Part shown: positions 3,891 through 19,924 of the stretch, piece by piece
Numbering within the stretch: position 1 is the stretch's first letter
How the letters are laid out: every line of letters starts with the position of its first letter
From: Cyanobacteria bacterium P01_A01_bin.135
GTDB lineage: Bacteria > Cyanobacteriota > Cyanobacteriia > CAKZMO01
Reading direction: 5' to 3'
Length of the DNA: 35,310 nucleotides
Assembly (NCBI GenBank): GCA_039814955.1
Contig: JBCCAG010000001.1
Span: forward strand, 1 to 35,310
Made by a program: the position numbers and the translations under genes
Notes under the pieces: model-generated
Told to the model about the DNA's origin: nothing
Database searches by the model: none
Seen by the model: the letters and a program-made list of their open reading frames with translations, nothing else

Positions 3891-3918
3891 GGGTTCACCC
3901 TCTGCAGAGGGTGAACCC
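3891..3918 (+). terminator. Perfect 28-nt palindrome / GC-rich hairpin 21 nt after the antiporter stop
   Basis: GGGTTCACCCTC-TGCA-GAGGGTGAACCC is read directly from the sequence (12-bp stem). No U-tract follows, so it may be a terminator or RNA-stability hairpin rather than a canonical intrinsic terminator. Confidence 0.4.
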
Positions 3919-4054
3919 CGAAATAGCGTTCTTCGGATTAATGCCTCTTCTCGAAAGTAGCGCCACGAATGCTGATAGCGGATGGCAGATAATAGAGGAG
4001 AAGCAGACAGAGTTATAGTCTAATTCAGAGAGTGGTAAAAGGAGAAATATCCGA

Positions 4055-4684
4055 ATGTTAAATCTTACCCAGGCATCATGGATCAACGAGCCAAAGACAT
4101 GCGAAGTGACATCAGATAAAGTCGTGATAATAACGGAAGAAGAAACAGATCTTTGGCAACGTTCATACTATGGCTTCAGGAGAAATAATGCTCCTGGCTT
4201 ATTGCTGGAGATCAATGATAACTTTAGTTTTACTACAAGAGCTAAATTCGAATATAGGAACCTCTTTGATCAATGCGGGGTAATCGTTTATCTAGATGAG
4301 GAAAACTGGTTTAAAGCCTCTGTTGAATATGAAAATGAGGATTTCTCACGTCTTGGTAGCGTGGTTACCAATCTTGGTTATTCTGACTGGGCCACAACAG
4401 ATATAAAGCCGCTATCCTGTATTTGGTATCGGCTTAGCCGAAGAGGACCGGACTTTCTGATCGAATCTTCTTTTGATAGCTACTCATTCAAGCAGATGAG
4501 GATTTTCCATCTACATCAGCTGGGCAAAACTACTGTCGCTATGGGGAAAGCAAATCCACCTCGACCTGCAAATTCTACAATTCGATTTGGTGTGTACGCC
4601 TGCAGCCCGCTGCAGTCCTCGTTTATAGCAACGTTCACTGAGCTGTGCCTGGAGCCATGCAAATGGCAGGCACATAAGGCTTAG
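4055..4684 (+). CDS. DUF1349 family protein (concanavalin-like fold family)
   Basis: ATG preceded by AAAGGAGA. The translation matches the DUF1349 pattern (W.NEP...TDLWQRSYYGF...DQCGVIVYLDEENWFKASVEYE...LGSVVTN..SDWATTD). The gene is AT-rich relative to its flanks and has no HIP1. Confidence 0.8.
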   Translation: MLNLTQASWINEPKTCEVTSDKVVIITEEETDLWQRSYYGFRRNNAPGLLLEINDNFSFTTRAKFEYRNLFDQCGVIVYLDEENWFKASVEYENEDFSRLGSVVTNLGYSDWATTDIKPLSCIWYRLSRRGPDFLIESSFDSYSFKQMRIFHLHQLGKTTVAMGKANPPRPANSTIRFGVYACSPLQSSFIATFTELCLEPCKWQAHKA

Positions 4685-4818
4685 TATTTGAGGCGGTTTG
4701 TAACCCCTCATCATCGTCATCATCACCCAGACCGATGCGGACGCTTGAGCGAGGCATCGAGTTTGCCACCAAAAGACTGTCTAGAACTATATTGGCATTT
4801 CACAGATCGTTTAGAAAA

Positions 4819-5526
4819 ATGGCTAATTTAGAGCATGTTCAATGGCTTAGAAAAGGTGCATTCGCCTGGAACAGCTGGCGACAGCAGCACCCGGCTATCT
4901 ATCCAGACTTCAACAGTGCCCACTGCCGCAGCTGCAACCTTGCAGAGGCTCAGCTAGAGAATAGCAATTTTCATGGAGACGACTTAGTCGGCACAAACTT
5001 TAGTGGCGCTAATCTGTCACAGTCTGACCTCAGCAATTCAATCTTGCGAAAGGCGGATTTTAGTCAGGCCCAGCTTTACGGAAGCAATCTTACCCAGACA
5101 GACTTACGAGGCACCAACCTAAATGGCGCTGATTTGATAGAGGTAACGCTGATCAGCGCTGATCTGACAGGCGCCTGCTTGATCAACAGCAATTTTAGTC
5201 GTGCTGCGCTAGTGAGCGCTAATTTAGCGCAAGCAATACTCATTCGAGCTATTGGGTGGGGCGCTGATTTCACGGGAGCTTTCCTGCAAGGGGCTAATTT
5301 CACCCAGGCTGATCTGCGCGGCGCTAACTTCAGTAGTGCTGACTTGAGAGGCGCTAGCTTGATCGGAGCGCGCTTAGACGAAGCGTCATTTGAATATGCC
5401 AATCTGCAAGACGCTAACTTTCAGGGGGCTAATGTCAGCAGTACTTTATCCAGCAGATTAGCACCCACAACACAGCCTTTTTTACCGCAGCATCGCGCGT
5501 TATTCTTACCTGCATCTCAAGATTAA
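4819..5526 (+). CDS. Pentapeptide-repeat protein
   Basis: Long run of A(D/N)LXX pentapeptides (ANLSQSDLSNSILRKADFSQAQLYGSNLTQTDLRGTNLNGADL...). The ORF is open from 4735, but the first ATG with a sensible N-terminus (MANLEHVQWL) is at 4819. Confidence 0.9.
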   Translation: MANLEHVQWLRKGAFAWNSWRQQHPAIYPDFNSAHCRSCNLAEAQLENSNFHGDDLVGTNFSGANLSQSDLSNSILRKADFSQAQLYGSNLTQTDLRGTNLNGADLIEVTLISADLTGACLINSNFSRAALVSANLAQAILIRAIGWGADFTGAFLQGANFTQADLRGANFSSADLRGASLIGARLDEASFEYANLQDANFQGANVSSTLSSRLAPTTQPFLPQHRALFLPASQD

Positions 5527-5560
5527 TTCGCACCACCTCAGAATAGATTATAGATTGCTG

Positions 5561-7480
5561 ATGATACCGCCATTTGAAGCTTTATCTCGCTCCCGATCCC
5601 TGCGCCGCTTCTTGCACGCTTTCCTCCTGACCTTCGCTCTAGTCTTACTGCAGTCCGCGATCGCCTCAGGGCAAGACTTCTCAGCATTTACGGGCCAGGC
5701 CAGCGCTGTTCCACCCGAGGGAGTCACCCGCTACGGCAGCATTGAAGTGGCCTGGGTGCGATCGCCTCTCAGCGGCGAGCGGCTTTTTCAGGTGGCAGCG
5801 CCCACTGTGCTCGATCGCGCCAGCATTAGCGAGGGAACGCTGCCGGTAGACCTGCGGGCCCAGAACATTGCGGCGCAGCTCTCCATCGAGGTGGAACGGT
5901 TTCGAGACAGCGCTATTACCCAACTTCTTCAGTACCTCCGTCACGGAGAAACTCTGACGCCGCGCCGGGCTGAGGTGATTATCTCAACCTTGAATAACCG
6001 ACCCGTTCTGCAGATCAGCAGCTCCGATGGCTCACGACCGCTCACCATTGCCACCGTCACCCAAACGGACGTGAATTTTTACAGCGAGACGCCGGATTTG
6101 CTGGCGGAAGACTGGCGAAACCTGCTGCAGACAGAGGTGGCGCAGCTAGAGCAGCTTGCCACTGTGGAAGCGGCACGGCAGGGGATTCGGGACAGTCTGG
6201 CTATACTGCTGGGAGCGATCGTCGCCACCGGACTTTTCGTGGCTCTATACCGATGGGTGGGGCAGAACCACCGCGCTTTACTGAAGCGAGATGTTGCCAT
6301 GTCCGAAGAGAATGCAACCACTACGACGGGAGATGGCCCATCAAACTCCGCCACGGTAGAAGCAGGCGCAGCATCGGTTGCCCCACCATCCTTCTCGGGC
6401 CTGCTGGCTGATCGCTCCCGGTTTCTGCGCTTTCTGCATAAGCCATCGACCCAGGGGCAGAAGCAGTTTGGTAGGTCCGCGCAGTGGCTGCTGGTGTGGC
6501 TAATTGTCCTAACCTGGTATGGAACCTTAATCGGCTTGAGCCACACCCTGCCCATGCTGATGCAGTGGCGCAGCGCTATCTTGAGTCACCCCTTCCGGCT
6601 GATTTTGATTTGGTTTGCCGTCACGCTTGCACTGCGGGTGAGCCAAGTGCTGATTCAGCGCTTTGTCGATAGGCGAGACGCCCTCGGTATTCTTGTCGGC
6701 GAAGCTCAGCGCAAAGTCCTGCGCAGCAATACCATCGGCGGAGCACTGAAAGGGCTAGTTTCTAGCGTCTTGGTAGTCACCGGCCTACTACTCACCCTTT
6801 CTACCTTTGGAATTTCCACCGGGTCGATTTTGGCCTGGAGCGCTGTGCTAGGTCTAGCCGTGTCTTTCGGAACCCAGAGCCTAGTGAAGGATGTGGTCAA
6901 TGGCTGCCTGATTCTGCTGGAAGACCAGTTTGCCGTGGGCGATGTGATCATTGTTAACGGTATGGCGGGTTTTGTGGAGGAAATGAACCTGCGCATCACC
7001 CGCCTACGAGACCCAGAAGGACAGCTGATCACCATCCCAAACGGAGCGATCGCCGAAGTGCGGAATCTGACCCGTCTCTGGTCTCGGGTGGACTTCACCA
7101 TTGAAGTGGCCTATGAAAATAACCCGGATAAGGTGCTAGGACTGCTTAACAAGATCGCCCAAGACATGTACAACACCCCAGAGTGGCGAGAGAAAATGCC
7201 CGACCCGCCCGAAGTGCTGGGAATTGACCAGCTGACCCATGCAGGCATCTTAATTCGGGTTTGGATCAAGACTGCGCCCCTGCAGCAGTGGCTCATAGGG
7301 AGGGAGTACCGCCTCCGGGTCAGGCGAGAATTTGAAGCCCACGGCATCACCATCGGTAAGCCGCAGTGGATTACCCACACCATCGCCCCAGAGCAGAGTC
7401 GGTCTCAGGGCACTGCAACAGCGATCGCCCTCACTCCCCCACCATCACCTCCAGCTCCCGTAGAACCTGAGCCCGACTAA
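5561..7480 (+). CDS. Mechanosensitive ion channel, MscS family, with a large N-terminal periplasmic and multi-TM extension
   Basis: Signal-like N-terminus, several TM segments, and the MscS core (LVKDVVNGCLILLEDQFAVGDVIIVNGMAGFVEEMNLRITRLRDPEGQLITIPNGAI). ATG at 5561; TTG at 5555 is an alternative start. Confidence 0.9.
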   Translation: MIPPFEALSRSRSLRRFLHAFLLTFALVLLQSAIASGQDFSAFTGQASAVPPEGVTRYGSIEVAWVRSPLSGERLFQVAAPTVLDRASISEGTLPVDLRAQNIAAQLSIEVERFRDSAITQLLQYLRHGETLTPRRAEVIISTLNNRPVLQISSSDGSRPLTIATVTQTDVNFYSETPDLLAEDWRNLLQTEVAQLEQLATVEAARQGIRDSLAILLGAIVATGLFVALYRWVGQNHRALLKRDVAMSEENATTTTGDGPSNSATVEAGAASVAPPSFSGLLADRSRFLRFLHKPSTQGQKQFGRSAQWLLVWLIVLTWYGTLIGLSHTLPMLMQWRSAILSHPFRLILIWFAVTLALRVSQVLIQRFVDRRDALGILVGEAQRKVLRSNTIGGALKGLVSSVLVVTGLLLTLSTFGISTGSILAWSAVLGLAVSFGTQSLVKDVVNGCLILLEDQFAVGDVIIVNGMAGFVEEMNLRITRLRDPEGQLITIPNGAIAEVRNLTRLWSRVDFTIEVAYENNPDKVLGLLNKIAQDMYNTPEWREKMPDPPEVLGIDQLTHAGILIRVWIKTAPLQQWLIGREYRLRVRREFEAHGITIGKPQWITHTIAPEQSRSQGTATAIALTPPPSPPAPVEPEPD

Positions 7481-8087
7481 TCCACCGCTCCTCCCGCCGC
7501 ACCGTGCCACTGTAAGGAGCCCGCACCACTGCCAACGTCGCGATCGCATTGTCCACCTCATCTAGCTTCAGCCGCGTCTGGGAAACCTGAAACGCCCTGT
7601 CTCGCAGGCGCTGTTCATACTCTGCCCACTGCCGCTGATAGGCGAGCATGGCTTGGTTGTAGGCCTCGACGTGCTGGGTCTGGCCTAGCCCGTGGTCATA
7701 TTCCCGGTACTGCCGTTCCTGCTGCGCCTTCTCCAGCTGTCCCTGCCCTAGCTCCTTGAGGTTGGCCTGCTCATGCTCCAGGACGATGGAATTTAACCCA
7801 TCAATGGTCTGCAGCTCCGCTAGCTCCTGCTGCTTGAGCTGCCAGGCCTGCTGCACCGCGGCGAGGGCGGCCTCTTGCTCCAGGTAACTTGCGTCAGGTA
7901 GGGCAGCGATCGCCGGGACGGACTTAGGCGCTGCCGGTGCGCTGATGGCTGAGAACTGTAGCCGATCTAGGGTGAGCTGTAGCTGCTGCCGCTGACCCTC
8001 CAGATGCTGGCGCTCTCGGCCTCGGTCGGCGATCAGGTCCCCAACCACAATGCGATCGCCTTCTTTTACCTTCAGGTCTTCCTGCAA
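7431..8087 (-). CDS. Lipoyl-hairpin plus coiled-coil (HlyD-like) protein fragment; the N-terminus appears lost to a frame break
   Basis: LKVKEGDRIVVGDLIADR (first lipoyl half), a long Q/E/L-rich coiled coil, then VVRAPYSGTVRR (second lipoyl half). The only start is a TTG inside the lipoyl motif. The 3' end overlaps the MscS 3' end convergently by 50 nt. Confidence 0.6.
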   Translation of the reverse strand: MQEDLKVKEGDRIVVGDLIADRGRERQHLEGQRQQLQLTLDRLQFSAISAPAAPKSVPAIAALPDASYLEQEAALAAVQQAWQLKQQELAELQTIDGLNSIVLEHEQANLKELGQGQLEKAQQERQYREYDHGLGQTQHVEAYNQAMLAYQRQWAEYEQRLRDRAFQVSQTRLKLDEVDNAIATLAVVRAPYSGTVRREERWISRAQVLRELEVMVGE

Positions 8088-8323
8088 TCGCTGGCCCAGA
8101 CGCCGGTGATTCTGGCTATCATCTGCCGCTCACTGGCGGAGTCGTTGTAGACCTTCACCGCTGAATCCCGCAGCGCCAGGGAGCGGCCCACTGTTTTGGT
8201 GAGGCCGCCGTCGTTGGCCAGGTGAACGCCGAGGAACAGCAGGGCCGTCGCCGCGGCCAGTATCCACAGCTCGCTGCTGCCGCCCGTACGCAGTCGCCGC
8301 CGAGGGTTGCTGACGCTGATGCA

Positions 8324-8689
8324 CTACACCGGCTCCGGCCAGAAGAGCTGCACCCCCTGTTTGGTGAAGGTGTCGTTGAAGCAGGAGAGCAAATGACCTA
8401 GCGGCAGAGCTAGGCATAACCGTATCTCCCCCAGAACCATGCCGGTAACCAGGGAGGCGATCGCCAGGGCTGCTGAGGTGAGTAGGCAGTGGGTGACGGT
8501 GCGGTGGGGGTAGCGGTCTTCTATCCAGCTCGACAGCGGGAAGCACACCTGGCCGATGATGCTGGTGGTGGAATCGAGGTCGGGGAGCTGGGAGCCGATG
8601 ATGGCCAGACCCAGGGCTATGGGGTTAGAGGTGGAGAGGATTAGGGAGACGCCGGCGGTGCCGATCGCGGCGTGGGTGAGGGTGAGCAC
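8324..8689 (-). CDS. YdjM/DUF457-like membrane-bound metal-dependent hydrolase, ending prematurely at an in-frame TAG
   Basis: GTG start. Motifs THAAIG, LPDLD, HRTVTHC and GHLLSCFNDTFTKQGVQLFWP resemble the YdjM family. The same frame stays open for about 75 more codons after the TAG (8324-8326) and encodes the expected distal TM helix (ELWILAAATALLFLGV). Confidence 0.7.
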   Translation of the reverse strand: MLTLTHAAIGTAGVSLILSTSNPIALGLAIIGSQLPDLDSTTSIIGQVCFPLSSWIEDRYPHRTVTHCLLTSAALAIASLVTGMVLGEIRLCLALPLGHLLSCFNDTFTKQGVQLFWPEPV

Positions 8690-8698
8690 TATGCAAAC

Positions 8699-10033
8699 TT
8701 AATTGAGAAATTTAGTGTTACTATGTCTCCCCTGTAAACGAAGGCTCTTTTCATCACTAGAAGCTTTCATCACCTCTTGTCTAATCCAATTAATAAAGCA
8801 CTTGCAGCAATGCTCATTCTTCAGCTTCCATTTTTCATCACCCTGATACTCTAGCCAACCAAGAGTATGTTGCATTGTTGTAAAGAGGATCTTATAAAAT
8901 TGCACGAGTTCTCTTGACCTTGCATCAGACTCGTTCATTCTTTCAATCAGAACTGAACTATCAATTATGTAATCACCTTTTTCAATCTCCTTAAATAGGT
9001 GCATCAAATGGCCTATAAATAGAGAAACCGAAATCCCAGAGTTATGGACCGTTTTAATAACTTCATCGAGTTTTTCTCGTTGAATATCTATTGGGTGAAT
9101 ATCTACCGGAATCACGATTTCATTTTCCACTTCAGCGATAAATTCTTTACTACCTCTTATTGTACGGATAATGAGCTTTAAAATTCCAAGCTTTTCCTCT
9201 TTTCTTCGGCCTGAAAGGGCAAATCCAAGAGATATGATCATACTATCAAGGCCTATAGCTAGGCCCATAGAAATTAAGGCAGGCTCTTCAAGTTTTTTTA
9301 TTTTATGATACGGAGCTAATAGTGGAATATCTTGATCTTCATCAATGTACTGCGATCGAGATAGACTTTCTTGATTGATCAGATGGGCAGGCCGAAATTC
9401 TGAAGGTACAGATGCTAAAGCGCTTTTGTCTTTTATGAGTATTTCCTCGGGCGTCAAATCTTTAAGTTCATACTCAAACTTTGGCTTGAGTTGATTTACT
9501 AGGCTACTCAATTGCTCATATTGTGTCTTGATAGCAATAGACTCATTCTCTATTTGTCTAGCTACAGGCCCATAACCTGACTCATTCGTATATAACCCCC
9601 TATCTATTTCTATCGCTAATTGTTTTTGCTTTTCAAGATATTCTGAGTTTAATCTATGAATATCATTCTCAATTGGTGTAAACACTTCTTCCACCAAATT
9701 AAAATGCGCAGAGCTAGCTAGATTTCCAGCTAGCTCTGCTTGTTGACTGCTAGTAAGCTGCTCATAGTAAGAAAAGAAACTTGTATAAACACTCAGAGAA
9801 GCTAAAAATAACGAACTAGTTAGCCTTATAAAAGGAGCATCTTTCACTTGACCAGAGGTAAGGAGAAACAGAAGTGCTTGTATAAAAGTTCCAGCCACAC
9901 CTCCTACGAATATTTTTGGAAATATTTGAATAGCTCCGAATACTGTCGTTGTACCGCTTGCAAGGTTACACATTAGCAAGGTAACAAATAGAATCTTTTT
10001 ATCTTTATATTCTTCGAGTATCGGAGTATTCAT
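8699..10033 (-). CDS. Hypothetical 444-aa membrane protein: 3 N-terminal TM helices, a coiled coil, a 4th TM and a ~170-aa C-terminal domain; compositionally foreign
   Basis: Uninterrupted ORF in a strongly AT-rich block. Hand counts give 37-38% G+C in lines 9001 and 9241, against 62% in line 8401. No HIP1 sites. Hydrophobic segments: ILFVTLLMCNLASGTTTVFGAI, FVGGVAGTFIQALLFLLTS, LTSSLFLASLSVYTSFFSYY and ALISMGLAIGLDSMIISLGFAL. No catalytic motif was recognised. Confidence 0.85.
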   Translation of the reverse strand: MNTPILEEYKDKKILFVTLLMCNLASGTTTVFGAIQIFPKIFVGGVAGTFIQALLFLLTSGQVKDAPFIRLTSSLFLASLSVYTSFFSYYEQLTSSQQAELAGNLASSAHFNLVEEVFTPIENDIHRLNSEYLEKQKQLAIEIDRGLYTNESGYGPVARQIENESIAIKTQYEQLSSLVNQLKPKFEYELKDLTPEEILIKDKSALASVPSEFRPAHLINQESLSRSQYIDEDQDIPLLAPYHKIKKLEEPALISMGLAIGLDSMIISLGFALSGRRKEEKLGILKLIIRTIRGSKEFIAEVENEIVIPVDIHPIDIQREKLDEVIKTVHNSGISVSLFIGHLMHLFKEIEKGDYIIDSSVLIERMNESDARSRELVQFYKILFTTMQHTLGWLEYQGDEKWKLKNEHCCKCFINWIRQEVMKASSDEKSLRLQGRHSNTKFLN

Positions 10034-10200
10034 GAGTACATCCCTTGATAGTTATTACTCAAATGCATCCCGCTTCCCTCAAGCAGGATCCGGTAGTAAG
10101 TTAAAAGAGTACTCTCGCGGGTACCTAGCACTAAAGACATCCCACCTGAAAGATAAGCCTGCGCTAACTTCTTGATGCTCAAACGAATATGTAGCATCAT
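10030..10200 (-). CDS. Unlisted 56-aa ORF (MMLHIRLSIKKLAQAYLSGGMSLVLGTRESTLLTYYRILLEGSGMHLSNNYQGMYS), possibly HTH-like, coupled to the 444-aa gene
   Basis: Found by manual reverse-complement translation; it is below the 60-aa cutoff of the ORF track. ATG at 10200 lies 2 nt after the upstream TAG (10203-10205). Its TGA (10032-10030) overlaps the ATG (10033-10031) of the 444-aa gene as ATGA. The ORF fills the whole spacer. Confidence 0.4.
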   Translation of the reverse strand: MMLHIRLSIKKLAQAYLSGGMSLVLGTRESTLLTYYRILLEGSGMHLSNNYQGMYS

Positions 10201-10202
10201 GG

Positions 10203-10823
10203 CTACTGCCCCAACCGCTTTCTGGCCCCCCGCACACCCCCCAACTGCTTCAGCGTCATCCCCGCCACCAGCGTCACCCCACCCGTGATGTAGAGCCCCT
10301 TATTCCCCGTCCCCATCCCAATAAAGCGGGCAATCCCAAACGCCATCAGGCAGGCGATAATGACGGGCATGATGACCACATACTTCGTGTGCTGGGGGCT
10401 CGCCGACTTGTTCAGCCCCAGCTTCTCATTGCGCACCACCTTCCGGGCCAGCATCGGGTTGCGCCCTGCCAGAGACTGCAGCTCTGCCAGCCGCGCCTTC
10501 TCCACCTGCAGGCCCAGCGGCAGGGCAATCTCAATCTCCTGCATCTCCAGGAAAATATCCTTGCCTGGATTGACGGCGGCGAAGCAGCAGACCCGCACCC
10601 CGCGCACCATCAAATCCTCCAGCCAATAGCGGATACCGGTGGTGAGCCGCTTCGCCTCAGGCAGTACCAGCAGCGTCCGGCCATCCACGTTTTGGGCAAT
10701 CTCATCCTTCAGGACATCCATGGTCAGCCCCTTGTCGTTCTCGTCCGTGGTGGGGATTTGCAGCTGCTCGGCCACCACCTGGAAGAAGCGCTTGCCCGAC
10801 CCCTTGTAGATTGCCATGGCCAC
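10203..10823 (-). CDS. Hypothetical protein with an NTPase-like alpha/beta region lacking intact Walker motifs and two C-terminal TM helices; possibly the 3' part of a frameshifted longer gene starting near 11028
   Basis: The segment AIYKGSGKRFFQVVAEQLQIP...TLLVLPEAKRLTTGIRYWLEDL...VRVCCFAAVNP looks like the post-Walker-A part of a P-loop NTPase, with the Walker-B Asp replaced by Pro. C-terminal TMs: YVVIMPVIIACLMAFGIARFIG and LYITGGVTLVAGMTL. An upstream ORF in another frame (ATG 11028 to TGA 10837) abuts it. Confidence 0.65.
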   Translation of the reverse strand: MAMAIYKGSGKRFFQVVAEQLQIPTTDENDKGLTMDVLKDEIAQNVDGRTLLVLPEAKRLTTGIRYWLEDLMVRGVRVCCFAAVNPGKDIFLEMQEIEIALPLGLQVEKARLAELQSLAGRNPMLARKVVRNEKLGLNKSASPQHTKYVVIMPVIIACLMAFGIARFIGMGTGNKGLYITGGVTLVAGMTLKQLGGVRGARKRLGQ

Positions 10824-11035
10824 GGCCAGCTCGCTCTCATAGCGCTGGGCGATCGCTCGCGGCGCGGGGCAGGCAATCGCGGCTGTCGCGGTGGCCGTAG
10901 GGAAAGCTGACGGCTAGACATCTGCGGCTGAGACGAATAGGGTCTACAGTTCCCTTTACTGGCGGGCGTATAACGCCGCCGGAGGCGTAGAGGGGGGCGA
11001 TCGCGTTAGCGTAGCGGCATCGCCCCATGGCGCAC

Positions 11036-11263
11036 CTAGACATCGTCGCTTTTGGAGCGGCCAGGGCCGGTGGCCTTGCCCCCGAGGAGGCCAAAGACGG
11101 TGAGCAAGCCGACCTGGCAAGCCGTGGTGGAGGTCTCGAAGATTCGCTCTTGGTAGGGGTTGAGGTCATCGGAGCTGGACAGGTGCAGGGAGATGCCGCC
11201 GGTGGCGAGGGTGAGGCAGAGGACTGCGCCGAAGACGGGGCGGAACGAGTTGGGGTTGGGCAT
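11036..11263 (-). CDS. Hypothetical small two-TM protein (75 aa)
   Basis: ATG-initiated ORF with two hydrophobic helices (FRPVFGAVLCLTLATGGISL and ACQVGLLTVFGLLGG). It is the first gene of the minus-strand string, divergent from the NACHT gene. The overlapping plus-strand ORF (11027-11296) looks like a GC-rich antisense artefact. Confidence 0.4.
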   Translation of the reverse strand: MPNPNSFRPVFGAVLCLTLATGGISLHLSSSDDLNPYQERIFETSTTACQVGLLTVFGLLGGKATGPGRSKSDDV

Positions 11264-11386
11264 TGGCTAATACCGAGTGAAGAGCATAGGGCGTAAATAG
11301 TCGCGACGGGTGAACGGCCTATGTCTGTATCATCGGCAATTAGCGCTTAGAGTTCAGTCTCTGTAAGGGTTTCGGAATAGGTGACT

Positions 11387-11416
11387 TTGGTACGACTTTG
11401 GGACAACTTCTATACT
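11387..11416 (+). promoter_or_regulatory. Promoter candidate TTGGTA-N18-TATACT for the NACHT gene, embedded in direct and inverted repeats
   Basis: TTGGTA at 11387-11392 and TATACT at 11411-11416, 29 nt before the ATG at 11445. GACTTTGG occurs twice (11383-11390, 11394-11401). CAACTTC (11404-11410) and GAAGTTG (11418-11424) form an inverted repeat that brackets the -10 element. Confidence 0.3.
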
Positions 11417-11444
11417 TGAAGTTGGAATTTATTCTATTTGAGCC

Positions 11445-13979
11445 ATGGCAAAGCGATCGCTCACGGCATGTCCGGCGGGGATTGAGACGGCCACTACCGC
11501 TTTGACGGATAGGGGGTGGAGCCGTGAGGATTTGGCGGCCAGGGTGGTGATTGAGGGCAAGAGCAGGGCCACGACGGGAGTCGGTATCGGGACGGTGAAG
11601 AGATTCTTTGGCAGCGGGAGCTTAGATCGGAAGTATTTTGTGGGGATTTGTCGGGCGCTGGGGCTGGATTGGGAGGCGATCGCTGGGAAGAAAGGCGCTG
11701 AGCCTGGAAAGGGAAGCGGTGCAGGTTCGGAGGCTGAGGGGCGATCGCCCTCTGAGCTACCACAGCAGGCATCAGTTATCTATGACCTGCGGGGCGCAAA
11801 GTTTGGCGGTGGGGCTGCGATGGGTGGTGTCCACCAGTCGGGAGGCATCCTCAACGATTATTCAGGCAGCAAGGGGGCCAGCGCTCTCGATATCGATGCC
11901 CTGGTCCAAACCGTGCGGGAAAAGGTCCACGACAATATCCAGCAGCGGTGCGGCACCATGCGGGTGCTGGACATGAACCACCCCATTGACCTGACGGATA
12001 TCTACACCAGCGTCAATATTTTGGAGAAGATTACTGGACGGCGGCGGCTGGGGCGAAATGAACTGCTGCAAAACTTAGACCTTGAATACTTCGATCACTT
12101 CATGCTGAGCGACATCCTAGAGAAACGAATACCAGTGCTAGCAGCGGTCGAGGCTCACGACAGGTTGATAATTTTAGGGAAACCAGGAGCGGGGAAAACT
12201 ACCCTCCTTAAACGATTAGCGACGCTCTGTAATCGCGGACAGCTTCAGTCTGATGCCGTCCCTGTTTTCGTAACGCTCAAAGACTTTGCTGAGACCGAGG
12301 ACGAGCTAGATTTGCTGTTGTATATCGGACAACAATTGGAGCAGTATGGGGTTGAAGATGGGGCGATCGCTGCAAAGACACTGTTGCAGGAAGGGCGAGC
12401 GCTGGTACTCTTGGATGGCCTGGATGAGGTACCGGAGAGTGACCATAAACGGGTCATTCGAGACATTCGAGGCATCTATGAACGGTTTACGGGCTGTCAG
12501 TTTGTAATCACCTGTCGCATTGCGGCCCAGGAATATACTTTTGAGCCATTTGTGGAAGTGGAGGTGGCAGATTTTGATAATAAGCAAATTACAGAGTTTG
12601 TTGCCAAATGGTTTCAAATCCAGGAGAACCCCGTCAAGGCGCAGACGTTTCTAAAGCGCCTAGAAAATGACAGGCCCATCAGATTGCTGGCTCGCACCCC
12701 ACTACTTCTAACGCTACTATGCTTAGTCTTTCAGGACGCAGCTGATTTCCCGCGCAACCGCTCTCGGCTCTACAAAGAGATGCTGGACATGCTGCTGAAG
12801 AAGTGGGATGCGAAGCGCAACATTGAGCGAGACCAGGTGTACAAAGCGCTATCGCTACAGCGGAAGGAGGACCTACTGAGCCATGTAGCCTTTGAGGCTT
12901 TCAAACGTGGCGAACATTCATTTGAGCAGGGCGACATTGAGCGACAGATTCAAGGCTACATCCAGAACCTACCGGAGGTCAGCACTGATCTAGATTTCCT
13001 GCAGCTCGATAGCGAAGTCGTTCTCAAATCTATTGAGGCACAGCACGGGCTGCTAGTGGAGCGGAGGCGGGGTACTTACTCTTTTTCACATCCGACGTTT
13101 CACGAATACTTTACTGCCAGCTATATCGCCAGCCTCAACCCAGATAATCTACAGCAGCGCCTGAAAAACATGGCAGCGAATATAACGGAGAAGCGTTGGC
13201 GAGAGGTGTTTTTACTCGTGCCCGAAATGATAAGAAGCGCTGACTATCTTGTACGTCTTATGAAGCAGGAGGCTGATCAGCTCTTAGCGAGAGATGAAAA
13301 GCTGCAGCAGGTAATAGCTTGGGTAAGAACCAAGCAGTTGTCAGTCAATGCTCAAGATATAGGCTTTGAAGTTCGAAAATTTTACTTCAACCGGGTTCTT
13401 GATCTTGACTTTTACCGTAAACAAGACCCTACTCTCAGCCTTGCCCTTGCCCTATACCGCGATATCGAGCTTGCTATTTGGCTTGAACTCTATCGTAATC
13501 CCTACCGTGCCTTGGAACTCGAGCTCGAATCCTATTATGGCCTCGGACAAGCCTTCACATTGGACTGTGACCGCGCTCCCGAGTTTACTCTCAATCGCAT
13601 CCTTGGTCGTGCCTATTCTTTCAACGATCCTACCCGTTTCCTCAATAGCTCACTGGTGGAGGGAGCAGTTGAAGGGCTAAGAGACCAGCTTCCTATACCT
13701 AAAGGCGATCGCTCCGAATTCAGGCAATGGTGGCAATCTAACGGTAAAGCCTGGACCGAACAGCTCAGAGCCGTAATGATAGATCACCGCAACATCGGCC
13801 ACGACTGGCAGTTTACCAGCGAGCAAAAAGCGTTGCTAGAGCAGTACTACGATGCTAACCAACTACTCATCGAATGCCTCAATAGCGATTGCTACATCAC
13901 CCGCGACGTAAGAGAAGAAATCGAAGACACCCTCTTCCTCCCCATTGCCGAAATCGAAGCGCGAAAAGCCAAGCCCTAA
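11445..13979 (+). CDS. STAND NTPase with NACHT domain (bacterial NLR-like): N-terminal HTH module, NACHT, and a C-terminal helical domain typical of cyanobacterial NACHT proteins
   Basis: Walker A is LIILGKPGAGKTTLLKRL and Walker B is ALVLLDGLDEV. The pre-NACHT block (CGTMRVLDMNHPIDLTDIYTSVNILEKITGRRR) and the C-terminal block (RNIGHDWQFTSEQKALLEQYYDANQLLIECLNSDCYITRDVREEIEDTLFLPIAEIE) are as I recall them from cyanobacterial NACHT proteins. The N-terminal ~85 aa is HTH-like. Confidence 0.93.
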   Translation: MAKRSLTACPAGIETATTALTDRGWSREDLAARVVIEGKSRATTGVGIGTVKRFFGSGSLDRKYFVGICRALGLDWEAIAGKKGAEPGKGSGAGSEAEGRSPSELPQQASVIYDLRGAKFGGGAAMGGVHQSGGILNDYSGSKGASALDIDALVQTVREKVHDNIQQRCGTMRVLDMNHPIDLTDIYTSVNILEKITGRRRLGRNELLQNLDLEYFDHFMLSDILEKRIPVLAAVEAHDRLIILGKPGAGKTTLLKRLATLCNRGQLQSDAVPVFVTLKDFAETEDELDLLLYIGQQLEQYGVEDGAIAAKTLLQEGRALVLLDGLDEVPESDHKRVIRDIRGIYERFTGCQFVITCRIAAQEYTFEPFVEVEVADFDNKQITEFVAKWFQIQENPVKAQTFLKRLENDRPIRLLARTPLLLTLLCLVFQDAADFPRNRSRLYKEMLDMLLKKWDAKRNIERDQVYKALSLQRKEDLLSHVAFEAFKRGEHSFEQGDIERQIQGYIQNLPEVSTDLDFLQLDSEVVLKSIEAQHGLLVERRRGTYSFSHPTFHEYFTASYIASLNPDNLQQRLKNMAANITEKRWREVFLLVPEMIRSADYLVRLMKQEADQLLARDEKLQQVIAWVRTKQLSVNAQDIGFEVRKFYFNRVLDLDFYRKQDPTLSLALALYRDIELAIWLELYRNPYRALELELESYYGLGQAFTLDCDRAPEFTLNRILGRAYSFNDPTRFLNSSLVEGAVEGLRDQLPIPKGDRSEFRQWWQSNGKAWTEQLRAVMIDHRNIGHDWQFTSEQKALLEQYYDANQLLIECLNSDCYITRDVREEIEDTLFLPIAEIEARKAKP

Positions 13980-13981
13980 CC

Positions 13982-14653
13982 TCACATCAGCACCGCCAAA
14001 ATCCCAGCCACAGGCCGCCGCTCCCCCCACATCTGCTGCACCATGCTACGCTTCCGCACCGGAATAGACTTCCGATGCCGCCCCTCCCCATCATCCCAGC
14101 AGTAGTAATAGCTCACTGAGGAGTTCTTGCGCCGCTTATTCCCCAACCGCTCCTCAATCCAGCCGCAGGCCTGCCCCTTGGGCACATGCCGCCGCGAGGA
14201 GGCCTGACGCGCTGGCGCGACCAGCTCAGACGGCACAGCCTCAACTAGACTTAGCTGCCCACCATTTCCCCCAGAACAGGGCACAGCCACCAGCGCGCCC
14301 CGCTGGAAGTACCGGCAGATAGCATCCCCATCCAGCAGCACCTTCTCATAGCCCGCCAGCTCCCAGGCGGTAGGGGGCTGCTTCACGGTGCCCTGCCGCC
14401 CGATGTCGTCCTCCAGCCAGGAGGAGGCGACCTGCACCCGGCTACCCATGGCAAAGGGCGGGTAATCCTGTTCTGGGGGAGATGACACCCCATCAATGCC
14501 CTCGGCCACGTGGGGCTGGGGGATGCCGCTGCCGTAGTCAGCAAAGATGATGGTCTCCTGGCCTGCGGGCTGCACCTCGGTGACGATCGCCCTCCCAGCG
14601 CGGGTGGTGATCTGGTTCCCGGCGGCAACGTCCAGAACCCCTGAGGCAGGCAC
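13982..14653 (-). CDS. Hypothetical 223-aa protein downstream of the HNH gene (two SH3/Tudor-like beta segments plus a basic C-terminal motif)
   Basis: GTG start 35 nt after the HNH stop. The stop lies 2 nt from the convergent NACHT stop. The C-terminal motif is GWIEERLGNKRRKNSSVSYYYCWDDGEGRHRKSIPVRKRSMV. No family was recognised. Confidence 0.7.
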   Translation of the reverse strand: MPASGVLDVAAGNQITTRAGRAIVTEVQPAGQETIIFADYGSGIPQPHVAEGIDGVSSPPEQDYPPFAMGSRVQVASSWLEDDIGRQGTVKQPPTAWELAGYEKVLLDGDAICRYFQRGALVAVPCSGGNGGQLSLVEAVPSELVAPARQASSRRHVPKGQACGWIEERLGNKRRKNSSVSYYYCWDDGEGRHRKSIPVRKRSMVQQMWGERRPVAGILAVLM

Positions 14654-14688
14654 CTCAATCGTTAGCTCAAATTACCCTTGGTCGAAGC

Positions 14689-15006
14689 TCATAGCTGACC
14701 CTCCTGCAGTAGGTTGAACTGGCCATGGCGCTCCAGCTTGGCGTAGTGGTTCATAGATTGAAAGGGGCGATCGTGGTTGAGGTGGCATCCAGTACAGAGT
14801 GCCCGCAGGTTGTCGGGCGTGTTATTGCTGGGGTCTTGGTCCAGGTGGGCGACGGTGAGGGTCCAGCGCTGGGGATGGGCCATTACAGCAGTGGCATCGG
14901 TCTCCCCCAGAACACGGGTGATGAAAGTAGGGAGGCTCTCGTGGGGGCGACGGCAGGCCCGACCACAGCCCTGGCAGCGCCAGTCGGCCGCTTCTGACAA
15001 ACCCAT
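14689..15006 (-). CDS. HNH endonuclease (the ORF continues upstream to 15120 as an in-frame fusion with a transposase N-terminal remnant)
   Basis: CxxC (WRCQGCG) and the HNH core (TVAHLDQDPSNNTPDNLRALCTGCHLNHD). An internal Met (MGLSEA) at 15006 is the most plausible HNH-only start. Confidence 0.8.
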   Translation of the reverse strand: MGLSEAADWRCQGCGRACRRPHESLPTFITRVLGETDATAVMAHPQRWTLTVAHLDQDPSNNTPDNLRALCTGCHLNHDRPFQSMNHYAKLERHGQFNLLQEGQL

Positions 15007-15120
15007 CACTCGCAATGCTGCGCTCACCGTTCGTTTTCCTGGTGCTAGGACTGCTCCGCTGACCAGCACCACTGCTGAGTGCCATACTGAGTGGGAGAAC
15101 AGGGGGCAGAACAGCAGCAT
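15007..15120 (-). mobile_element. Remnant: the first ~40 codons of a DDE-type putative transposase, fused in frame to the HNH ORF
   Basis: MLLFCPLFSHSVWHSAVVLVSGAVLAPGKRTVSAALRVMGL matches, from memory, the conserved N-terminus of a putative-transposase family (LF.PLFS..VW..A..L..GA.LAPGKRTV..ALRVMGL). The rest of that transposase is absent. Confidence 0.45.
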
Positions 15121-15198
15121 TAGCGTCGTGAAGTCTATTCGAGCCAGGGTTTCAGCGTTTTACCTATTCTCCTCGCTACTGCCTCCCCCCCAACTCCA

Positions 15199-15564
15199 AT
15201 GGATAAAGTCGAGCCAAATGTGGAGATTGACTGGCGCATTTACCCGATGACGCGGGATATCTCCTTTGCCCGGCATGAGCAGGAGGACCGCAAGTACACC
15301 GTAGTAACCCTGACGTGGCCAAATAGGGACAGTTGTCGGCTGTTGGAGATGGGGCGGCCAGATGGCCATCAAATCTCCAGCCTCATGTTTGTCATCACAA
15401 ACTGTTCGATGGGGCCGGATGAGCAGGTTTCCTTGGCGGCCCGAATCCTTGAGCGGTTGCTGAATGACGCGCTTATCCCCGGTGGAAACAAGATGCTTGC
15501 ACTCGTTGAGCAGGCTGTCTCTGAGCAGGCTAACCCACATCACCATCAGTCGTGCGTCAGGTAA
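15199..15564 (+). CDS. Hypothetical 121-aa protein
   Basis: ATG ORF with protein-like composition and codon usage. The overlapping 173-aa minus-strand ORF is R/S/P/W-rich and looks spurious. No SD sequence and no family recognised. Confidence 0.4.
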   Translation: MDKVEPNVEIDWRIYPMTRDISFARHEQEDRKYTVVTLTWPNRDSCRLLEMGRPDGHQISSLMFVITNCSMGPDEQVSLAARILERLLNDALIPGGNKMLALVEQAVSEQANPHHHQSCVR

Positions 15565-15702
15565 GGAACTAGACCATACAGTCGGCAACGACGAAAGCAG
15601 ATATGTCTGTTCCCCCGAGACGCATTCAGGTGAACGCCCAGAAGCGGCAGCGGAAATCCTTCGCACCAATCTGTACTGCACGCTAACTGCGGCGTCTCCA
15701 AG

Positions 15703-18231
15703 CTATCGCTGATTAAGGCAGTAGTCCGTCACCTGCAAGTTGAATGAGAATACCCCGCCAAACCAGTCATCAAAAACCATATTTTCTGCGTCCGACTCTA
15801 AAAATGTATCCACCGTTGCCTTCCAAGTAGAATCATTGTCGGGCAAAATCAATCCATAAAACTCACAGGATAATGGTCGCTCCGGAACCAAGGTGAAGTT
15901 GCTGATATCTTGCCCCTCTCGTATCAGCTCAGCGTAGGATAGAATACCGTCGCCAACAAATGCATCGATCTGTCCAGAGGATACGGCCTGTACTGCCGTT
16001 TGCCGTCCATCCGCGCCACGAAAGGGAATCAGGGTTGCCTGTGGATAGCGATCGCGTACCAGGGTTTCCGCTGTCGTATCTTGTAGTACGCCTAACCGAG
16101 TATCGGCCAGGGGTAAGTTGGGGTTCACTGTATCGGCTTTGCTGCTGGAGATTAGAAAACGTGTGCTAGCCGTTAAAATCGACTGGGAGAAGGTGATATC
16201 CGCAATATCGGTGCGGATTGTGTTCGGCCCGCATTCTAAGTGAACGCTGCCGTCCCTCACTAGGTCAAAGCGATTTTGCAGTGTTGAGGTTAGCTCCACC
16301 AGCTCCACCCGTGTAGGGCTATCGAGCGCATTTGTCAGGTAGTTGCCCAGGGCGATCGCCATTTCCCCACAATAGCCATCCCAAGCGGTGTCTTGATTGA
16401 TGTAGCCGAAGGGTGGGGCGTCTTTGCGGAAGGCGACCTTCAGCACCCCAGTACGCTCGATTTCGGCCAGGATGCTCTCATCTCGGGGCGGTGTCTCGGG
16501 GGCGATCGCTGGTGGGTCAATTGGTATGGGCAGTGAAGCCCCATAGGCCGCCTCAAGCTGCTCGGCGGTCAAAGATTGAATAATATCGAGCCGGAGGGGT
16601 TCGTCTGCGCTCAGAGCGCGGCCTGCGGCGGCAGTTAGGCGAGCTAATTCTGGGCGGCGCGCTTCGTCATCCCTAACCAAATGGTTTTGCAGAAACGCCA
16701 GCACTAGCCCCTTAGCGTAGCGGGCGCCAATGTCCCGGTGTTCCCCCACTAAGGCCTGAAACATCCCCTCGGCATTAACCCGACCGGGCTTAGAGGTGAA
16801 GTGGGTCCCTACCTGCATTAATGCTAGGTACTTCGGACTGGACTGGGCCCAGATAAATGGGTAGATCTGCTCGGGGACCACAGGGGAAAGGATGTCGTTA
16901 CTGCCCGAGATCATCAGCAGCGGAATCGCCACCTGGGCCATTCCTTCTGGCCCATAGAGATGTCCCCCCATGGGGTGTGTCACTACCACAGCGCTGATGC
17001 GATCATCGCGGAGTTGGTAGTTTTCTGGGGGCAAATGCTGGGCACGACACTGCAGGTATAGTGCGATGTTGAGGATAACGTTCTCCTCATGGCAGGCTGC
17101 GGCTAGCCGCAGGTAGTTGATTTCAGCTCCCGCCAGCGCCAGCGCCGTTGAGCCGCCTAAGGAATCTCCCATAACGGCAATACGGCTCAAGTCTAAGCGG
17201 GCGGACCACTCGGGCGATCGCGCGACCAGCCGTTCCAGGTCATCAATGAGAAAAGAGATTTCCTGGGGGCGGTTCAGAAACTCCATTGGGCTCAGCAATG
17301 TGTTCAAGCGTCCCTGCAAAAAGGTTTGGCGATAACTTAAGTCGCTGCCGATGTGGTCTATCAGCATGACGGCAGTGCCATGGGATGCCAGGTGCTCCGC
17401 CATGAAGACGAAGCTCTCTTTCACATCGCCAAACCCGTGGGATAGTAGCAGCACCGGGGCAGGCTCAGTCAAGCCCTGCGGATAATACACGTCTACCGGA
17501 AAGTCGTAGCTGACGGTGAGGCCTGTATCTGTCTGGCGCAGGTCTGGGTTCTCAACCGTAATACTTGTGGTACCAACCGCATAGGAGCCTGGCTCACTCA
17601 AGCGGGTTAGTTCATCAGCGATCGGACCAGAAGCATCAGCCTCGGCCTCTAGCGTTGCCTGCTGCTGAATGGCACTAACGACAGCCTGGTTATAGTCCAA
17701 GTAGCCCGTCAGCGTCTGGCGCAGCTTCAGCAGGTCCTCTAGCTTGATGTAGATATCTTCGGAGGGAAACTGACGCAGCACATCCAGCAGAGTCCAGTTG
17801 TTTGAACCTGCTGCCGCCGCACCAATGAGCGCTGCCCGTAATCCATAGAAGCCGTCGACATCGGGGTGGACCCGAATTACCTTGCCAAGGTTAGAGAGTA
17901 ATTCTCGCCCCAGTGGAGAGTAGGTCAAATTGCCCACCGTCGCCCGATTGAAGGGGATAGGCTGGCGCAGTTGCTGCTGCACGGTCCCTCGGACTTGATC
18001 GGGCAAAAAGCCCACGACTAGGGCGACATCTCCGCTGGCTTCCCCAGTTTCAGCAAACGCCTCTAGATCATCAACGGATAGGGTTAGGGTTAGGGGACCT
18101 TCAACCACCACCTGCACCACTTCTGCACCTGCGGCGGATTTGGGCTGCGTGATTTCTCCAAGAGCGCCAGCGGTGGCTAGACAGGCCGCAGAGAGCACCG
18201 TTTTCCAGAAGTTTGACAGTAGGCGAGCCAT
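15703..18231 (-). CDS. Secreted three-domain protein: DUF1400-like N-terminal domain, alpha/beta hydrolase, and a C-terminal family-3 periplasmic solute-binding domain
   Basis: Signal peptide (MARLLSNFWKTVLSAACLATAGA). DUF1400-like region (LTLSVDDLEAFAETGE...LRQFPSEDIYIKLEDLL). Hydrolase elements (LLLSHGFG, nucleophile elbow VMGDSLGG). SBP_bac_3-like tail (VLKVAFRKDAPPFGYINQD...YCGEMAIALG...IDAFVGDG). Confidence 0.88.
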   Translation of the reverse strand: MARLLSNFWKTVLSAACLATAGALGEITQPKSAAGAEVVQVVVEGPLTLTLSVDDLEAFAETGEASGDVALVVGFLPDQVRGTVQQQLRQPIPFNRATVGNLTYSPLGRELLSNLGKVIRVHPDVDGFYGLRAALIGAAAAGSNNWTLLDVLRQFPSEDIYIKLEDLLKLRQTLTGYLDYNQAVVSAIQQQATLEAEADASGPIADELTRLSEPGSYAVGTTSITVENPDLRQTDTGLTVSYDFPVDVYYPQGLTEPAPVLLLSHGFGDVKESFVFMAEHLASHGTAVMLIDHIGSDLSYRQTFLQGRLNTLLSPMEFLNRPQEISFLIDDLERLVARSPEWSARLDLSRIAVMGDSLGGSTALALAGAEINYLRLAAACHEENVILNIALYLQCRAQHLPPENYQLRDDRISAVVVTHPMGGHLYGPEGMAQVAIPLLMISGSNDILSPVVPEQIYPFIWAQSSPKYLALMQVGTHFTSKPGRVNAEGMFQALVGEHRDIGARYAKGLVLAFLQNHLVRDDEARRPELARLTAAAGRALSADEPLRLDIIQSLTAEQLEAAYGASLPIPIDPPAIAPETPPRDESILAEIERTGVLKVAFRKDAPPFGYINQDTAWDGYCGEMAIALGNYLTNALDSPTRVELVELTSTLQNRFDLVRDGSVHLECGPNTIRTDIADITFSQSILTASTRFLISSSKADTVNPNLPLADTRLGVLQDTTAETLVRDRYPQATLIPFRGADGRQTAVQAVSSGQIDAFVGDGILSYAELIREGQDISNFTLVPERPLSCEFYGLILPDNDSTWKATVDTFLESDAENMVFDDWFGGVFSFNLQVTDYCLNQR

Positions 18232-19307: not shown

Positions 19308-19370
19308 AGGTCCTTTTGACGGCGAGAATTCCCGATGAATGCAGCGATCGCCGCTCTGGATAGAGGTGCG

Positions 19371-19823: not shown

Positions 19824-19924
19824 GGCTTAAGTCCAAAGGTATTTCTACGCAGAGTTTCTTATGGTCGTCACAACAGGACCGAGTGTAGCAGGTTGAAAAG
19901 CCGTTGAATACTGCGGCAGTGTTG

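Follow-up and report, generated by a model that had tools for sequence, protein, structure and literature searches.

The question raised by this locus is whether the genes that surround a NACHT-type nucleoside triphosphatase (NTPase) gene in Cyanobacteria bacterium P01_A01_bin.135 work together with it. We analysed the whole contig (C56, 35,310 bp), which is called the window below and comes from a metagenome bin with 961 contigs, a completeness of 80.6% and a contamination of 4.1%. The first-pass annotation had read positions 8699 to 15120 as one defence or mobile-element cluster arranged around a divergent NACHT promoter, with the neighbouring genes as possible effectors. All the elements that it listed are present in the sequence, some of them with corrections. 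We nevertheless arrive at a different reading, to which we assign a probability of about 65%: the interval is a mosaic of a decayed plasmid backbone and two cargo units, and its intact pair, a small membrane-protein gene (w75) and the NACHT gene, is a STAND-type switch on a divergent promoter. Comparisons were made with four genomes of the same genus (G001, which is the closest, G002, G003 with 20 contigs, and G004) and, for censuses of families, with a sample of 401 cyanobacterial genomes that includes 4 of the same genus and 12 of the same family. The gene content of the window, with DUF1400, pentapeptide and WD40 proteins, is that of a cyanobacterium, and named records exist for the relatives Leptolyngbya, Adonisia and Leptothoe.

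The pair and the region between its two genes are made up as follows:

11445..13979, plus strand: intact 844-amino-acid (aa) STAND NTPase with helix-turn-helix (HTH), NACHT and NCH2 parts (Pfam NACHT 2.5e-19, NCH2 (PF22727) 7e-41)
11036..11263, minus strand: w75, a 75-aa membrane protein with a predicted transmembrane (TM) hairpin (conserved family, divergent NACHT partner)
11264..11444, no strand: divergent control region of 181 nt (repeats, inverted repeat, promoter-like hexamers)

The large protein is indeed an HTH-NACHT STAND NTPase, with the HTH recognised by profile and by fold. Its NACHT domain covers residues 240-391 and carries the Walker A motif GKPGAGKT and the Walker B motif LLDGLDEV; NCH2 covers residues 742-833, and a helical region lies between the two domains. 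It thus has the intact Walker A, the D[GAS]hDE-type Walker B and the tripartite layout of bacterial NACHT proteins. Pfam assigns the NTPase to NACHT and not to NB-ARC or the MalT-like families, which places it outside the MalT/NB-ARC clade. Full-length homologues in other genera are 43-57% identical. The protein had been grouped with defence genes, and no recognised defence system emerged from our searches: in NCBIfam it scores 53.9 bits against DS8_antiphage (cut-off 790) and 43.8 bits against EruA (cut-off 1000) and is a member of neither, and the PADLOC model PDC-S60 matches the NTPase core only (E 8.7e-12).

The small ORF (open reading frame) with two TM segments proved to belong to a real, conserved family. 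In the alignment, its members share a hydrophobic helix with LTLxSGGTSL, a QxRIFE loop, a second hydrophobic segment (FGLLGSKA) and an acidic tail; a hydropathy scan calls only the first helix, and the second one rests on the conserved FGLLGSKA segment. The w75 profile is present in 60 of the 401 genomes and in one (G002) of the four from the same genus. A phmmer search among 1.84 billion cluster representatives returned 51 proteins at E<=1e-3, mostly small and including that of the window. We then counted partners at the 29 loci in other cyanobacteria that hold the best w75 homologues, the window being excluded. At 21 of these w75 faces a NACHT homologue (27-64% identical) and at another two the N-terminal HTH domain of the NACHT protein alone; the partner is divergent in every case, across a gap of ~0.15-0.75 kb. 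The other six lack such a partner, and three of the six lie beside purE. Counted from the other side, the small gene adjoins four of the nine best NACHT homologues. None of the other genes of the interval occurs at any of 20 w75/NACHT loci, with flanks of up to 10 kb. Apart from the 75-aa gene, the neighbours therefore do not co-occur with NACHT homologues, and the proposal that the HNH nuclease, its partner, the NTPase-like protein and the 444-aa protein are NACHT effectors finds no support there. Judged by conservation, only the w75/NACHT pair is maintained, and it appears to be the sole functional unit of the interval.

The solo w75 homologues next to purE form an observation of their own. 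They occur in three genomes of two genera (L100, L101, L102), with no NACHT gene within 1.5 kb, and the w75 family may have a role of its own.

Nearly all w75 partners begin with an HTH domain, the type of which varies. The HTH of the window protein (approximately residues 1-80) is of the Cro/C1-XRE type. It has no direct Pfam match; a 13-sequence profile of its family matches HipB (1.7e-4) and C.BclI (4e-4) in the PDB, and 9 of the 13 members match Pfam HTH_31 or HTH_26. An AlphaFold model of residues 1-89 reached a predicted local distance difference test score (pLDDT) of 83.7, and the top 50 PDB matches listed by Foldseek are Cro/C1-type HTH proteins (434 repressor, HipB, HigA, C.BclI, ComR, eukaryotic MBF1). 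Between helix 2 and the recognition helix the window protein has a 10-residue insertion, modelled as a beta-hairpin. The fold model and its structural matches point to a DNA-binding-type domain fused to the STAND NTPase. A second subgroup of partners has a different recognition helix (SRQTIWSLLQGN), and a third has an N-terminus that, judged by eye only, resembles LuxR/sigma-70 region 4.

The same XRE-type N-terminal module also heads other large cyanobacterial proteins. In the window, the WD40-repeat protein at 22500-23810 (plus strand) begins with a module of this class (hhalign probability 80%, E 1.5e-5); BLASTP of the NACHT N-terminus against this protein gave no match, so that the profile comparison alone revealed the shared HTH. 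The next ORF, 23714-24529, also encodes WD40 repeats, and the gene may thus be split.

The divergent arrangement at the NACHT gene, already recognised in the first-pass annotation, is real and conserved. The shared control region contains two tandem direct repeats, GACTTTGGTAC / GACTTTGGGAC, at 11383-11404, 11 nt apart, and a 7-bp inverted repeat, CAACTTC-N7-GAAGTTG, at 11404-11424 around a -10-like TATACT. The promoter-like hexamers TTGGTA (11387) and TATACT (11411) face the NACHT gene, and the direct repeats overlap the -35-like hexamer. For a comparison across loci, we grouped these by HTH subgroup and applied a windowed autocorrelation to the 130 nt upstream of the NACHT start, together with a test for k-mer recurrence. 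The autocorrelation gave one period or pair of periods for each group:

Window's HTH group, 10 loci: core (G/A)ACTTTG-like, lags of 11 and 22 nt, z 5.4 and 6.0
Second HTH group, 5 loci: core GTCAGA, lag of 9 nt, z 7.3
Third HTH group, 5 loci: core CTGAC(T), lag of 10 nt, z 7.5

All other lags had z <=3.2. When the window was left out, its group still gave z 3.9 and 5.9, and no coding-region control exceeded |z| >2.6. By k-mer recurrence, GTCAGA is found at least twice in 4 of 5 loci of the second group (p ~0.001) and CTGAC at least twice in all five loci of the third (p<0.001). A strict chain test on single loci (7-mers, at most one mismatch, spacing of 10-12 nt) was significant in only 3 of 20. 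The target promoter, as far as its sequence tells, thus holds the repeated candidate sites expected of a STAND transcription factor, and both period and sequence of the repeats follow the type of HTH. Because they change together with the HTH, we read the NACHT protein as a probable STAND-type transcription factor acting on the divergent promoter. A limited literature check, which does not prove absence, gave no description of operator arrays that covary with HTH type, nor of a divergent small membrane-protein gene conserved beside NACHT.

A second conserved element, GTTCAG(T/C)C, lies at 11349-11357 of the window, 20-30 nt from the direct repeats on the side of the small gene. Among 15 loci whose partner is of the XRE type, 9 have this element (L081, L082, L086, L090, L092, L098, L104, L105 and the window), which may contribute to the promoter or leader of the small gene.

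The mechanism that we propose follows the logic of MalT and AfsR, with a NACHT domain as the engine of a signal-dependent transcription factor. The N-terminal XRE-type HTH would bind the tandem direct repeats that closely precede the NACHT gene. A signal read by the helical/NCH2 part would lead to NTP-driven oligomerisation and hence to a changed occupancy of the repeat array, which in turn would switch the expression of both w75 and NACHT.

Several observations weigh against this reading. In the window's own group the k-mer test is weak, with ACTTT found at least twice in only 5 of 10 loci (p ~0.09), and the window has only two copies of the repeat. XRE-type HTH proteins usually bind inverted and not direct repeats, and the 10-residue insertion could alter the predicted DNA binding of the window HTH. 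About half of the close NACHT homologues have no w75 neighbour and some w75 homologues stand alone next to purE, so the pairing is not obligatory. The remaining points concern the setting. The left edge of the variable segment cannot be set; the incompleteness and fragmentation of the bin make both the absence from relatives and the chromosomal location less than certain; and the contig could itself belong to a large plasmid.

A broader version of the proposal is tentative, and we would sooner bet against it than for it. It holds that w75 and the HTH-NACHT-NCH2 protein form a widespread, horizontally mobile module in which the NACHT ATPase is directly the transcription factor and oligomerises on a phased direct-repeat array to switch on the small membrane protein. 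If it were true, the module would be a bacterial counterpart of the NLRs that control transcription and would add a new output class to bacterial NACHT immunity or signalling, with recognition helix and operator co-evolving in at least three specificity groups.

What, then, are the other genes? The remaining features of the interval are:

7431..8087, minus strand: remnant of an HlyD-like coiled-coil gene ('cc294'; tblastn 49% identity, E 4e-51)
8087..8689, minus strand: pseudogene of a YdjM-like membrane hydrolase (Pfam YdjM 1.4e-22)
8699..10033, minus strand: orphan gene of low GC (0.37-0.42) encoding 444 aa, with TM helices at the N-terminus and a coiled coil
10030..10200, minus strand: 56-aa ORF, unsupported as a gene (no family match, not conserved)
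10203..10859, minus strand: pseudo-ATPase gene, AAA-like, with two C-terminal TM helices, 206-aa ORF (at least 745 homologues)
10890..10999, no strand: leftover of sequence upstream of the first gene of the module described below (up182/188; 81-84% identity)
13982..14653, minus strand: 223-aa partner of the HNH gene (conserved C-terminal domain at approximately residues 150-223, GWIEER...YYYCWD)
14689..15120, minus strand: chimeric 143-aa ORF made of an HNH nuclease (14689-14997) and the start of an IS701-like transposase (phrog_1571 HNH 7e-18)
14983..15209, minus strand: IS701-like (DDE_5) insertion sequence, 5' end only (82-86% identity with G002 repeats)
15210..15700, no strand: unassigned 0.5 kb at the right end of the variable segment (homology to G001:C45 starts at 15701)

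Pfam, PADLOC, NCBIfam and PHROGs gave no family for the ORFs of 444, 206, 223, 75, 56 and 121 aa, the last of which lies at the right end of the interval.

The backbone of the interval is a stretch of the backbone of a widespread cyanobacterial plasmid family. One of its genes is the one described in the first-pass annotation as a degenerate NTPase-like TM gene. This gene is real and is truncated at its 5' end here. The degeneracy of its Walker motifs, in turn, is a property of the whole family, which comprises at least 745 cyanobacterial proteins of 226-290 aa with 63-70% identity between distant genera. Only one of the 51 full-length members has a canonical Walker A, and the Walker B sequence is LLxLPEA. 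The protein is therefore a pseudo-ATPase and not a decayed ATPase. The family occurs in 48 of the 401 genomes, in one of the 12 from the same family and in none of the four from the same genus, and the pair of pseudo-ATPase and YdjM-like genes is found on 44 PLSDB plasmids. Among the plasmids with the module are one of 35.5 kb from Moorena that carries a CyRepA1 replication gene (NZ_CP017600.1), pAQ5 of Picosynechococcus PCC 7002 (NC_010479.1) and NC_019749.1. A phage origin of the module was considered and dropped, with no match in 50,697 phage records.

Gene order was compared by tblastn between the window and 25 other loci (in the range L044-L067). L045 is cut short by the end of its contig and was left out, so that counts refer to 24 module loci. 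The order is the same in all 24: a gene of ~185 aa, the pseudo-ATPase with its two C-terminal TM helices, the YdjM-like hydrolase (~339 aa, with a long C-terminal extension), the HlyD-like protein (~294 aa) and a 205-aa protein with a weak TolC/OEP match. The HlyD-like gene follows YdjM in 19 of the 24 loci, and NACHT is absent from 22. This operon resembles a trans-envelope assembly, has two positions that take up unrelated cargo genes and seems to be uncharacterised; a limited literature check found no description of it, which is not proof of absence.

The window copy has the same genes in the same order as the sequenced plasmids, and its pseudo-ATPase, YdjM-like and HlyD-like parts are 68%, 58% and 49% identical, respectively, to Adonisia proteins. 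It lacks the intact genes and the replication gene of a functional plasmid: no replication gene was found among the window ORFs, none of which has the size of a Rep protein besides the NACHT and hydrolase genes. The pseudo-ATPase gene is truncated at its 5' end, with ~42 residues of the 284-aa form gone and no start codon before 10823; by tblastn it covers residues 43-284 of the protein P0008. It also has an internal deletion of 15 codons, seen in an alignment with the Logan contig L044 that has 697 columns against 652 window bases. The stretch at 10890-10999 matches L044 at 1393-1487 and L045 at 1451-1560, and homology to the pseudo-ATPase resumes at L044 position 2368. This leftover marks a deletion of ~0.8-0.9 kb that removed the first module gene together with the 5' end of the pseudo-ATPase gene. 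The YdjM-like pseudogene has an in-frame TAG at 8324-8326, through which a single tblastn high-scoring segment pair (residues 1-201, 58% identity) reads. Of its 339 residues the gene keeps those up to 201 and then continues, out of frame, at residue 56 of the coiled-coil gene, the remnant of which aligns with residues 56-264 of the 294-aa Adonisia protein and has a weak HlyD-type match in NCBIfam. Up to base 8083 the YdjM-like DNA is 87% identical to L044.

The foreign membrane-protein cassette that had been placed at 8699-10200 holds as regards its low GC (0.37-0.42 over 8.7-10.0 kb, compared with ~0.57 elsewhere) and its 444-aa gene. The 56-aa ORF did not stand: the small ORFs that precede two relatives of the 444-aa gene (w444) bear no relation to it, and at a third relative no frame is open in this place. 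The 444-aa protein has 3-4 hydrophobic segments and 11 relatives among 5.8 billion protein clusters, all of them in mobile-element contexts (MobA relaxase, Tn3, integrases, protelomerase and a Stanieria plasmid that also bears the module). The position of this gene is informative. Eleven loci have no more than 272 nt between the pseudo-ATPase and YdjM-like genes; in 12 others the gap spans 0.75-3.3 kb and contains different genes, and in a single locus it reaches 8.9 kb. It is a variable cargo slot, which in the window holds the 444-aa gene. In Adonisia (L046) and in G089 (L049) the slot holds a w75/NACHT-NCH2 pair, with NACHT proteins 45% and 51% identical to that of the window, respectively. 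The pair in the window lies on the opposite side of the pseudo-ATPase gene, and no terminal repeats were seen around the ~3-kb NACHT cassette when the window was compared with L046 and L049.

The HNH gene (phrog_1571 7e-18) and its partner at 13982-15120 were also rightly recognised. In related plasmid-like loci, HNH and the C-terminal domain of the partner are direct neighbours or parts of one protein. Both are found at a distance of 1.9-3 kb upstream of the module in L047, where they make up a single protein of 253 aa, and in L052; upstream of the module in L050 only HNH was found, and in L051 only the partner domain. The two belong to the plasmid backbone. The 223-aa partner has six relatives; a plasmid search with it gave no match. 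The HNH gene lacks ~20-25 N-terminal residues, and full-length relatives begin MPMDRSLYP.NW...ANWCC. Instead, the chimeric ORF begins with 40-odd codons that correspond to the N-terminus of a DDE_5/IS701-like transposase also present in two genomes of the same genus. The transposase remnant seen in the first-pass annotation is thus borne out: 14983-15209 matches repeats in G002, one copy of which encodes the DDE_5 N-terminus (E 2.9e-6); the copies in G004 are weaker. Of the IS701-like element, ~230 bp at its start are kept and the rest is gone.

In our reading, an MscS channel gene on one side and a DUF1400 hydrolase gene on the other enclose a captured stretch of plasmid backbone that has since decayed. 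Its minus-strand genes are, in order, HNH, the 223-aa partner, a lost HTH-like gene, the pseudo-ATPase, the YdjM-like hydrolase and the HlyD-like protein. The lesions comprise the deletion of ~0.8-0.9 kb, the 15-codon deletion, the in-frame stop, the deletion joining one gene to another and the IS701-like scar that beheaded HNH. The two cargo units are the low-GC 444-aa gene in the slot and the intact w75/NACHT unit of ~3 kb, transcribed divergently from the 181 nt. A single cluster organised around the NACHT promoter is not what we see, the minus-strand string being composite, with only its first gene, the 75-aa ORF, linked to NACHT.

The interval is strain-variable DNA of mobile-element origin, as had been supposed. 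Positions 4000-15720 of the window matched the four same-genus genomes only in short stretches (64-86% identity). Homology to the closest relative (G001:C45) begins sharply at 15701 with 94.5% DNA identity, and from there the two contigs are collinear rightwards; the DUF1400 hydrolases are 97% identical in protein, and the right 19.6 kb of the window follow the G001 contig at 80-95% identity. Directly left of the counterpart of 15701, G001 has unrelated sequence, and its contig ends 650 bp beyond the hydrolase gene. In G003 the two genes that flank the region in the window, RND and hydrolase, sit on separate contigs, and the more distant relatives have other neighbours. Synteny with the same-genus genomes fixes the right edge at 15701. 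The left edge was not set in this way, because the closest relative lacks everything left of 15701. As for the extent of 8699-15120 given at first, the mobile-derived stretch starts further left, at ~7431-7480, and the variable segment ends at 15700. Its final 0.5 kb include a 121-aa ORF of ordinary-looking composition (15199-15564, plus strand), for which neither Pfam nor PHROGs nor a set of 20 related loci gave a match.

Further variation was noted outside this interval. Between the YihY and lipase genes, 19324-20023 differs from G001:C45 (L022), which has three genes there against one in the window, two of them extra; the third of these, of 192 aa, corresponds to the META-domain gene of the window (19372-20006) with 82.5% identity. 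A block of SH3/WD40 genes (21.8-25.1 kb, 21783-25071) is absent from G001. On the left, a second GC dip (0.445-0.48) at 3500-5000 surrounds a DUF1349 gene and a pentapeptide-repeat gene. Pentapeptide genes also adjoin the plasmid module in Adonisia, and mobile-derived DNA may thus reach left of 7431.

How do other explanations fare? A true defence island would have HNH, its partner, the NTPase-like TM protein and the 444-aa protein as effectors or accessories of NACHT under one divergent promoter. Defence genes do cluster with mobile-element debris, the genes here are tightly packed, and NACHT proteins can be antiphage (bioRxiv 10.1101/2022.07.19.500537). The HNH motif alone also gives a match to the ZorE models of Zorya type II (E 1.4e-6 over ~55 residues). 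This match is weak, and neither ZorA nor ZorB was found among the ten ORFs of the region that were scanned; the PADLOC and NCBIfam matches fall far below their cut-offs, most of the supposed partners are broken here, and they belong to a plasmid backbone that mostly lacks NACHT. Together with their absence from the 20 other NACHT/w75 loci, this leaves the idea with hardly any credence, and the co-occurrence counts largely refute it. A defence role of the pair itself is a different matter and would be plausible. In that case NACHT might sense a phage cue and activate w75 post-translationally as a membrane-disrupting effector, in the manner of NLR-like abortive infection, with the HTH serving only autoregulation. 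Small TM proteins are common effectors in such systems, and a pair that is conserved and patchy (60 of the 401 genomes) and travels as plasmid cargo in L046 and L049 would fit; cyanobacteria have many paralogous NACHT proteins, which the literature reads as conflict systems. We regard this as unlikely, since the two genes are divergent and not co-transcribed, an HTH is kept in the partners examined though its type varies, and the repeat arrays covary with that type, which argues for DNA binding as the core output; solo w75 homologues in a housekeeping context next to purE fit it poorly as well.

These solo genes, seen in three genomes of two genera, would sit better with an ordinary signalling unit outside defence, for instance in envelope or stress sensing, with w75 as sensor or anchor of the HTH-NACHT protein and the presence in a mobile island incidental. 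The XRE-type module is shared with other large proteins, including the WD40 protein at 22500-23810, and MalT and AfsR are physiological STAND regulators. Against this stand the patchy distribution, with presence in only G002 among the four same-genus genomes, the carriage of the pair in plasmid cargo slots, and a high identity between genera that suggests horizontal spread, which is more typical of accessory or conflict functions; we consider such a unit quite unlikely. Finally, nothing may have been integrated at all, the contig being part of a large plasmid or a chimera of the bin and the decay reflecting plasmid plasticity or assembly error. The fragmented and slightly contaminated bin allows for this, cyanobacterial megaplasmids carry such accessory genes, and the flanking RND and hydrolase genes lie on different contigs in G003. 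This is improbable in view of the 19.6 kb that run collinear with the closest relative's contig and the lack of a replication gene among the window ORFs. The junctions are moreover backed by an independent Logan contig, 87% identical in the plasmid parts, in which the lesions are absent. The decayed backbone with an intact w75/NACHT switch thus remains the reading that we prefer.

For the locus itself, this reading replaces the label of a defence island by a mostly dead plasmid backbone with a single intact two-gene unit that deserves attention. For the biology of NLRs, it offers a conserved case of an apparent DNA-binding output at a divergent promoter, and thereby a simple system for the coupling of NACHT oligomerisation to gene control. 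For cyanobacterial plasmids, it points to an uncharacterised conserved operon with two cargo hotspots, which matters for plasmid biology and vector design.

Among known systems, the plasmids of the CyRepA type (PMC10079941, PMC10899382; Moorena NZ_CP017600.1) share the string of pseudo-ATPase, metal-dependent (YdjM) hydrolase and coiled-coil genes. The same module is found on pAQ5 of PCC 7002, where no CyRepA gene was seen in the part of the record examined. The annotation of the Moorena plasmid includes an HNH gene as well; the small pair of HNH and partner was found beside the module in related genomic loci. Unlike these plasmids, the window has no replication gene and a copy of the module that is broken in several places, and is thus a captured fragment and not a replicon. 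A conserved backbone with fixed positions that swap accessory genes is also the pattern of the defence hotspots of P2/P4-like prophages and integrative elements. Here, the backbone is a plasmid operon, NACHT occupies 2 of 24 slots, and in most of the cargo no defence domain can be recognised.

The usual view of the known bacterial NACHT proteins is that fused enzymatic effectors provide most of their output. The domain architecture of the window protein is of a known kind, since Kibby et al. (bioRxiv 10.1101/2022.07.19.500537; later in Cell) list HTH / transcription-regulatory domains among the N-terminal 'adaptors' of bacterial NACHT proteins and define the NCH domains; they also note many NACHT paralogues in cyanobacteria. 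With the proteins described there, the window protein shares the central NACHT with its D[GAS]hDE Walker B, the tripartite layout and the NCH-type C-terminus. It differs by the lack of an enzymatic effector domain; no defence phenotype is known for its clade, and our searches gave no close homologue with a tested phenotype. Mammalian CIITA and NLRC5 are likewise NACHT proteins with a transcriptional output, CIITA being mentioned in the same text. CIITA, however, lacks a DNA-binding domain and works by way of an enhanceosome, so that beyond the NACHT module the resemblance would be one of analogy only.

Closest in logic are MalT of Escherichia coli and the AfsR/SARP-NB-ARC-TPR proteins of Streptomyces, which combine a DNA-binding domain, a STAND NTPase and a helical sensor arm and whose target promoters hold several short repeats at about one helical turn, as befits an oligomerising activator. 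The NTPase of the window protein belongs to the NACHT clade and not to that of MalT or NB-ARC. Its HTH is N-terminal and of the XRE type (LuxR-like in a sister group), in contrast to the C-terminal LuxR-type domain of MalT and the N-terminal SARP winged helix of AfsR, and its proposed target would be a single gene for a small membrane protein.

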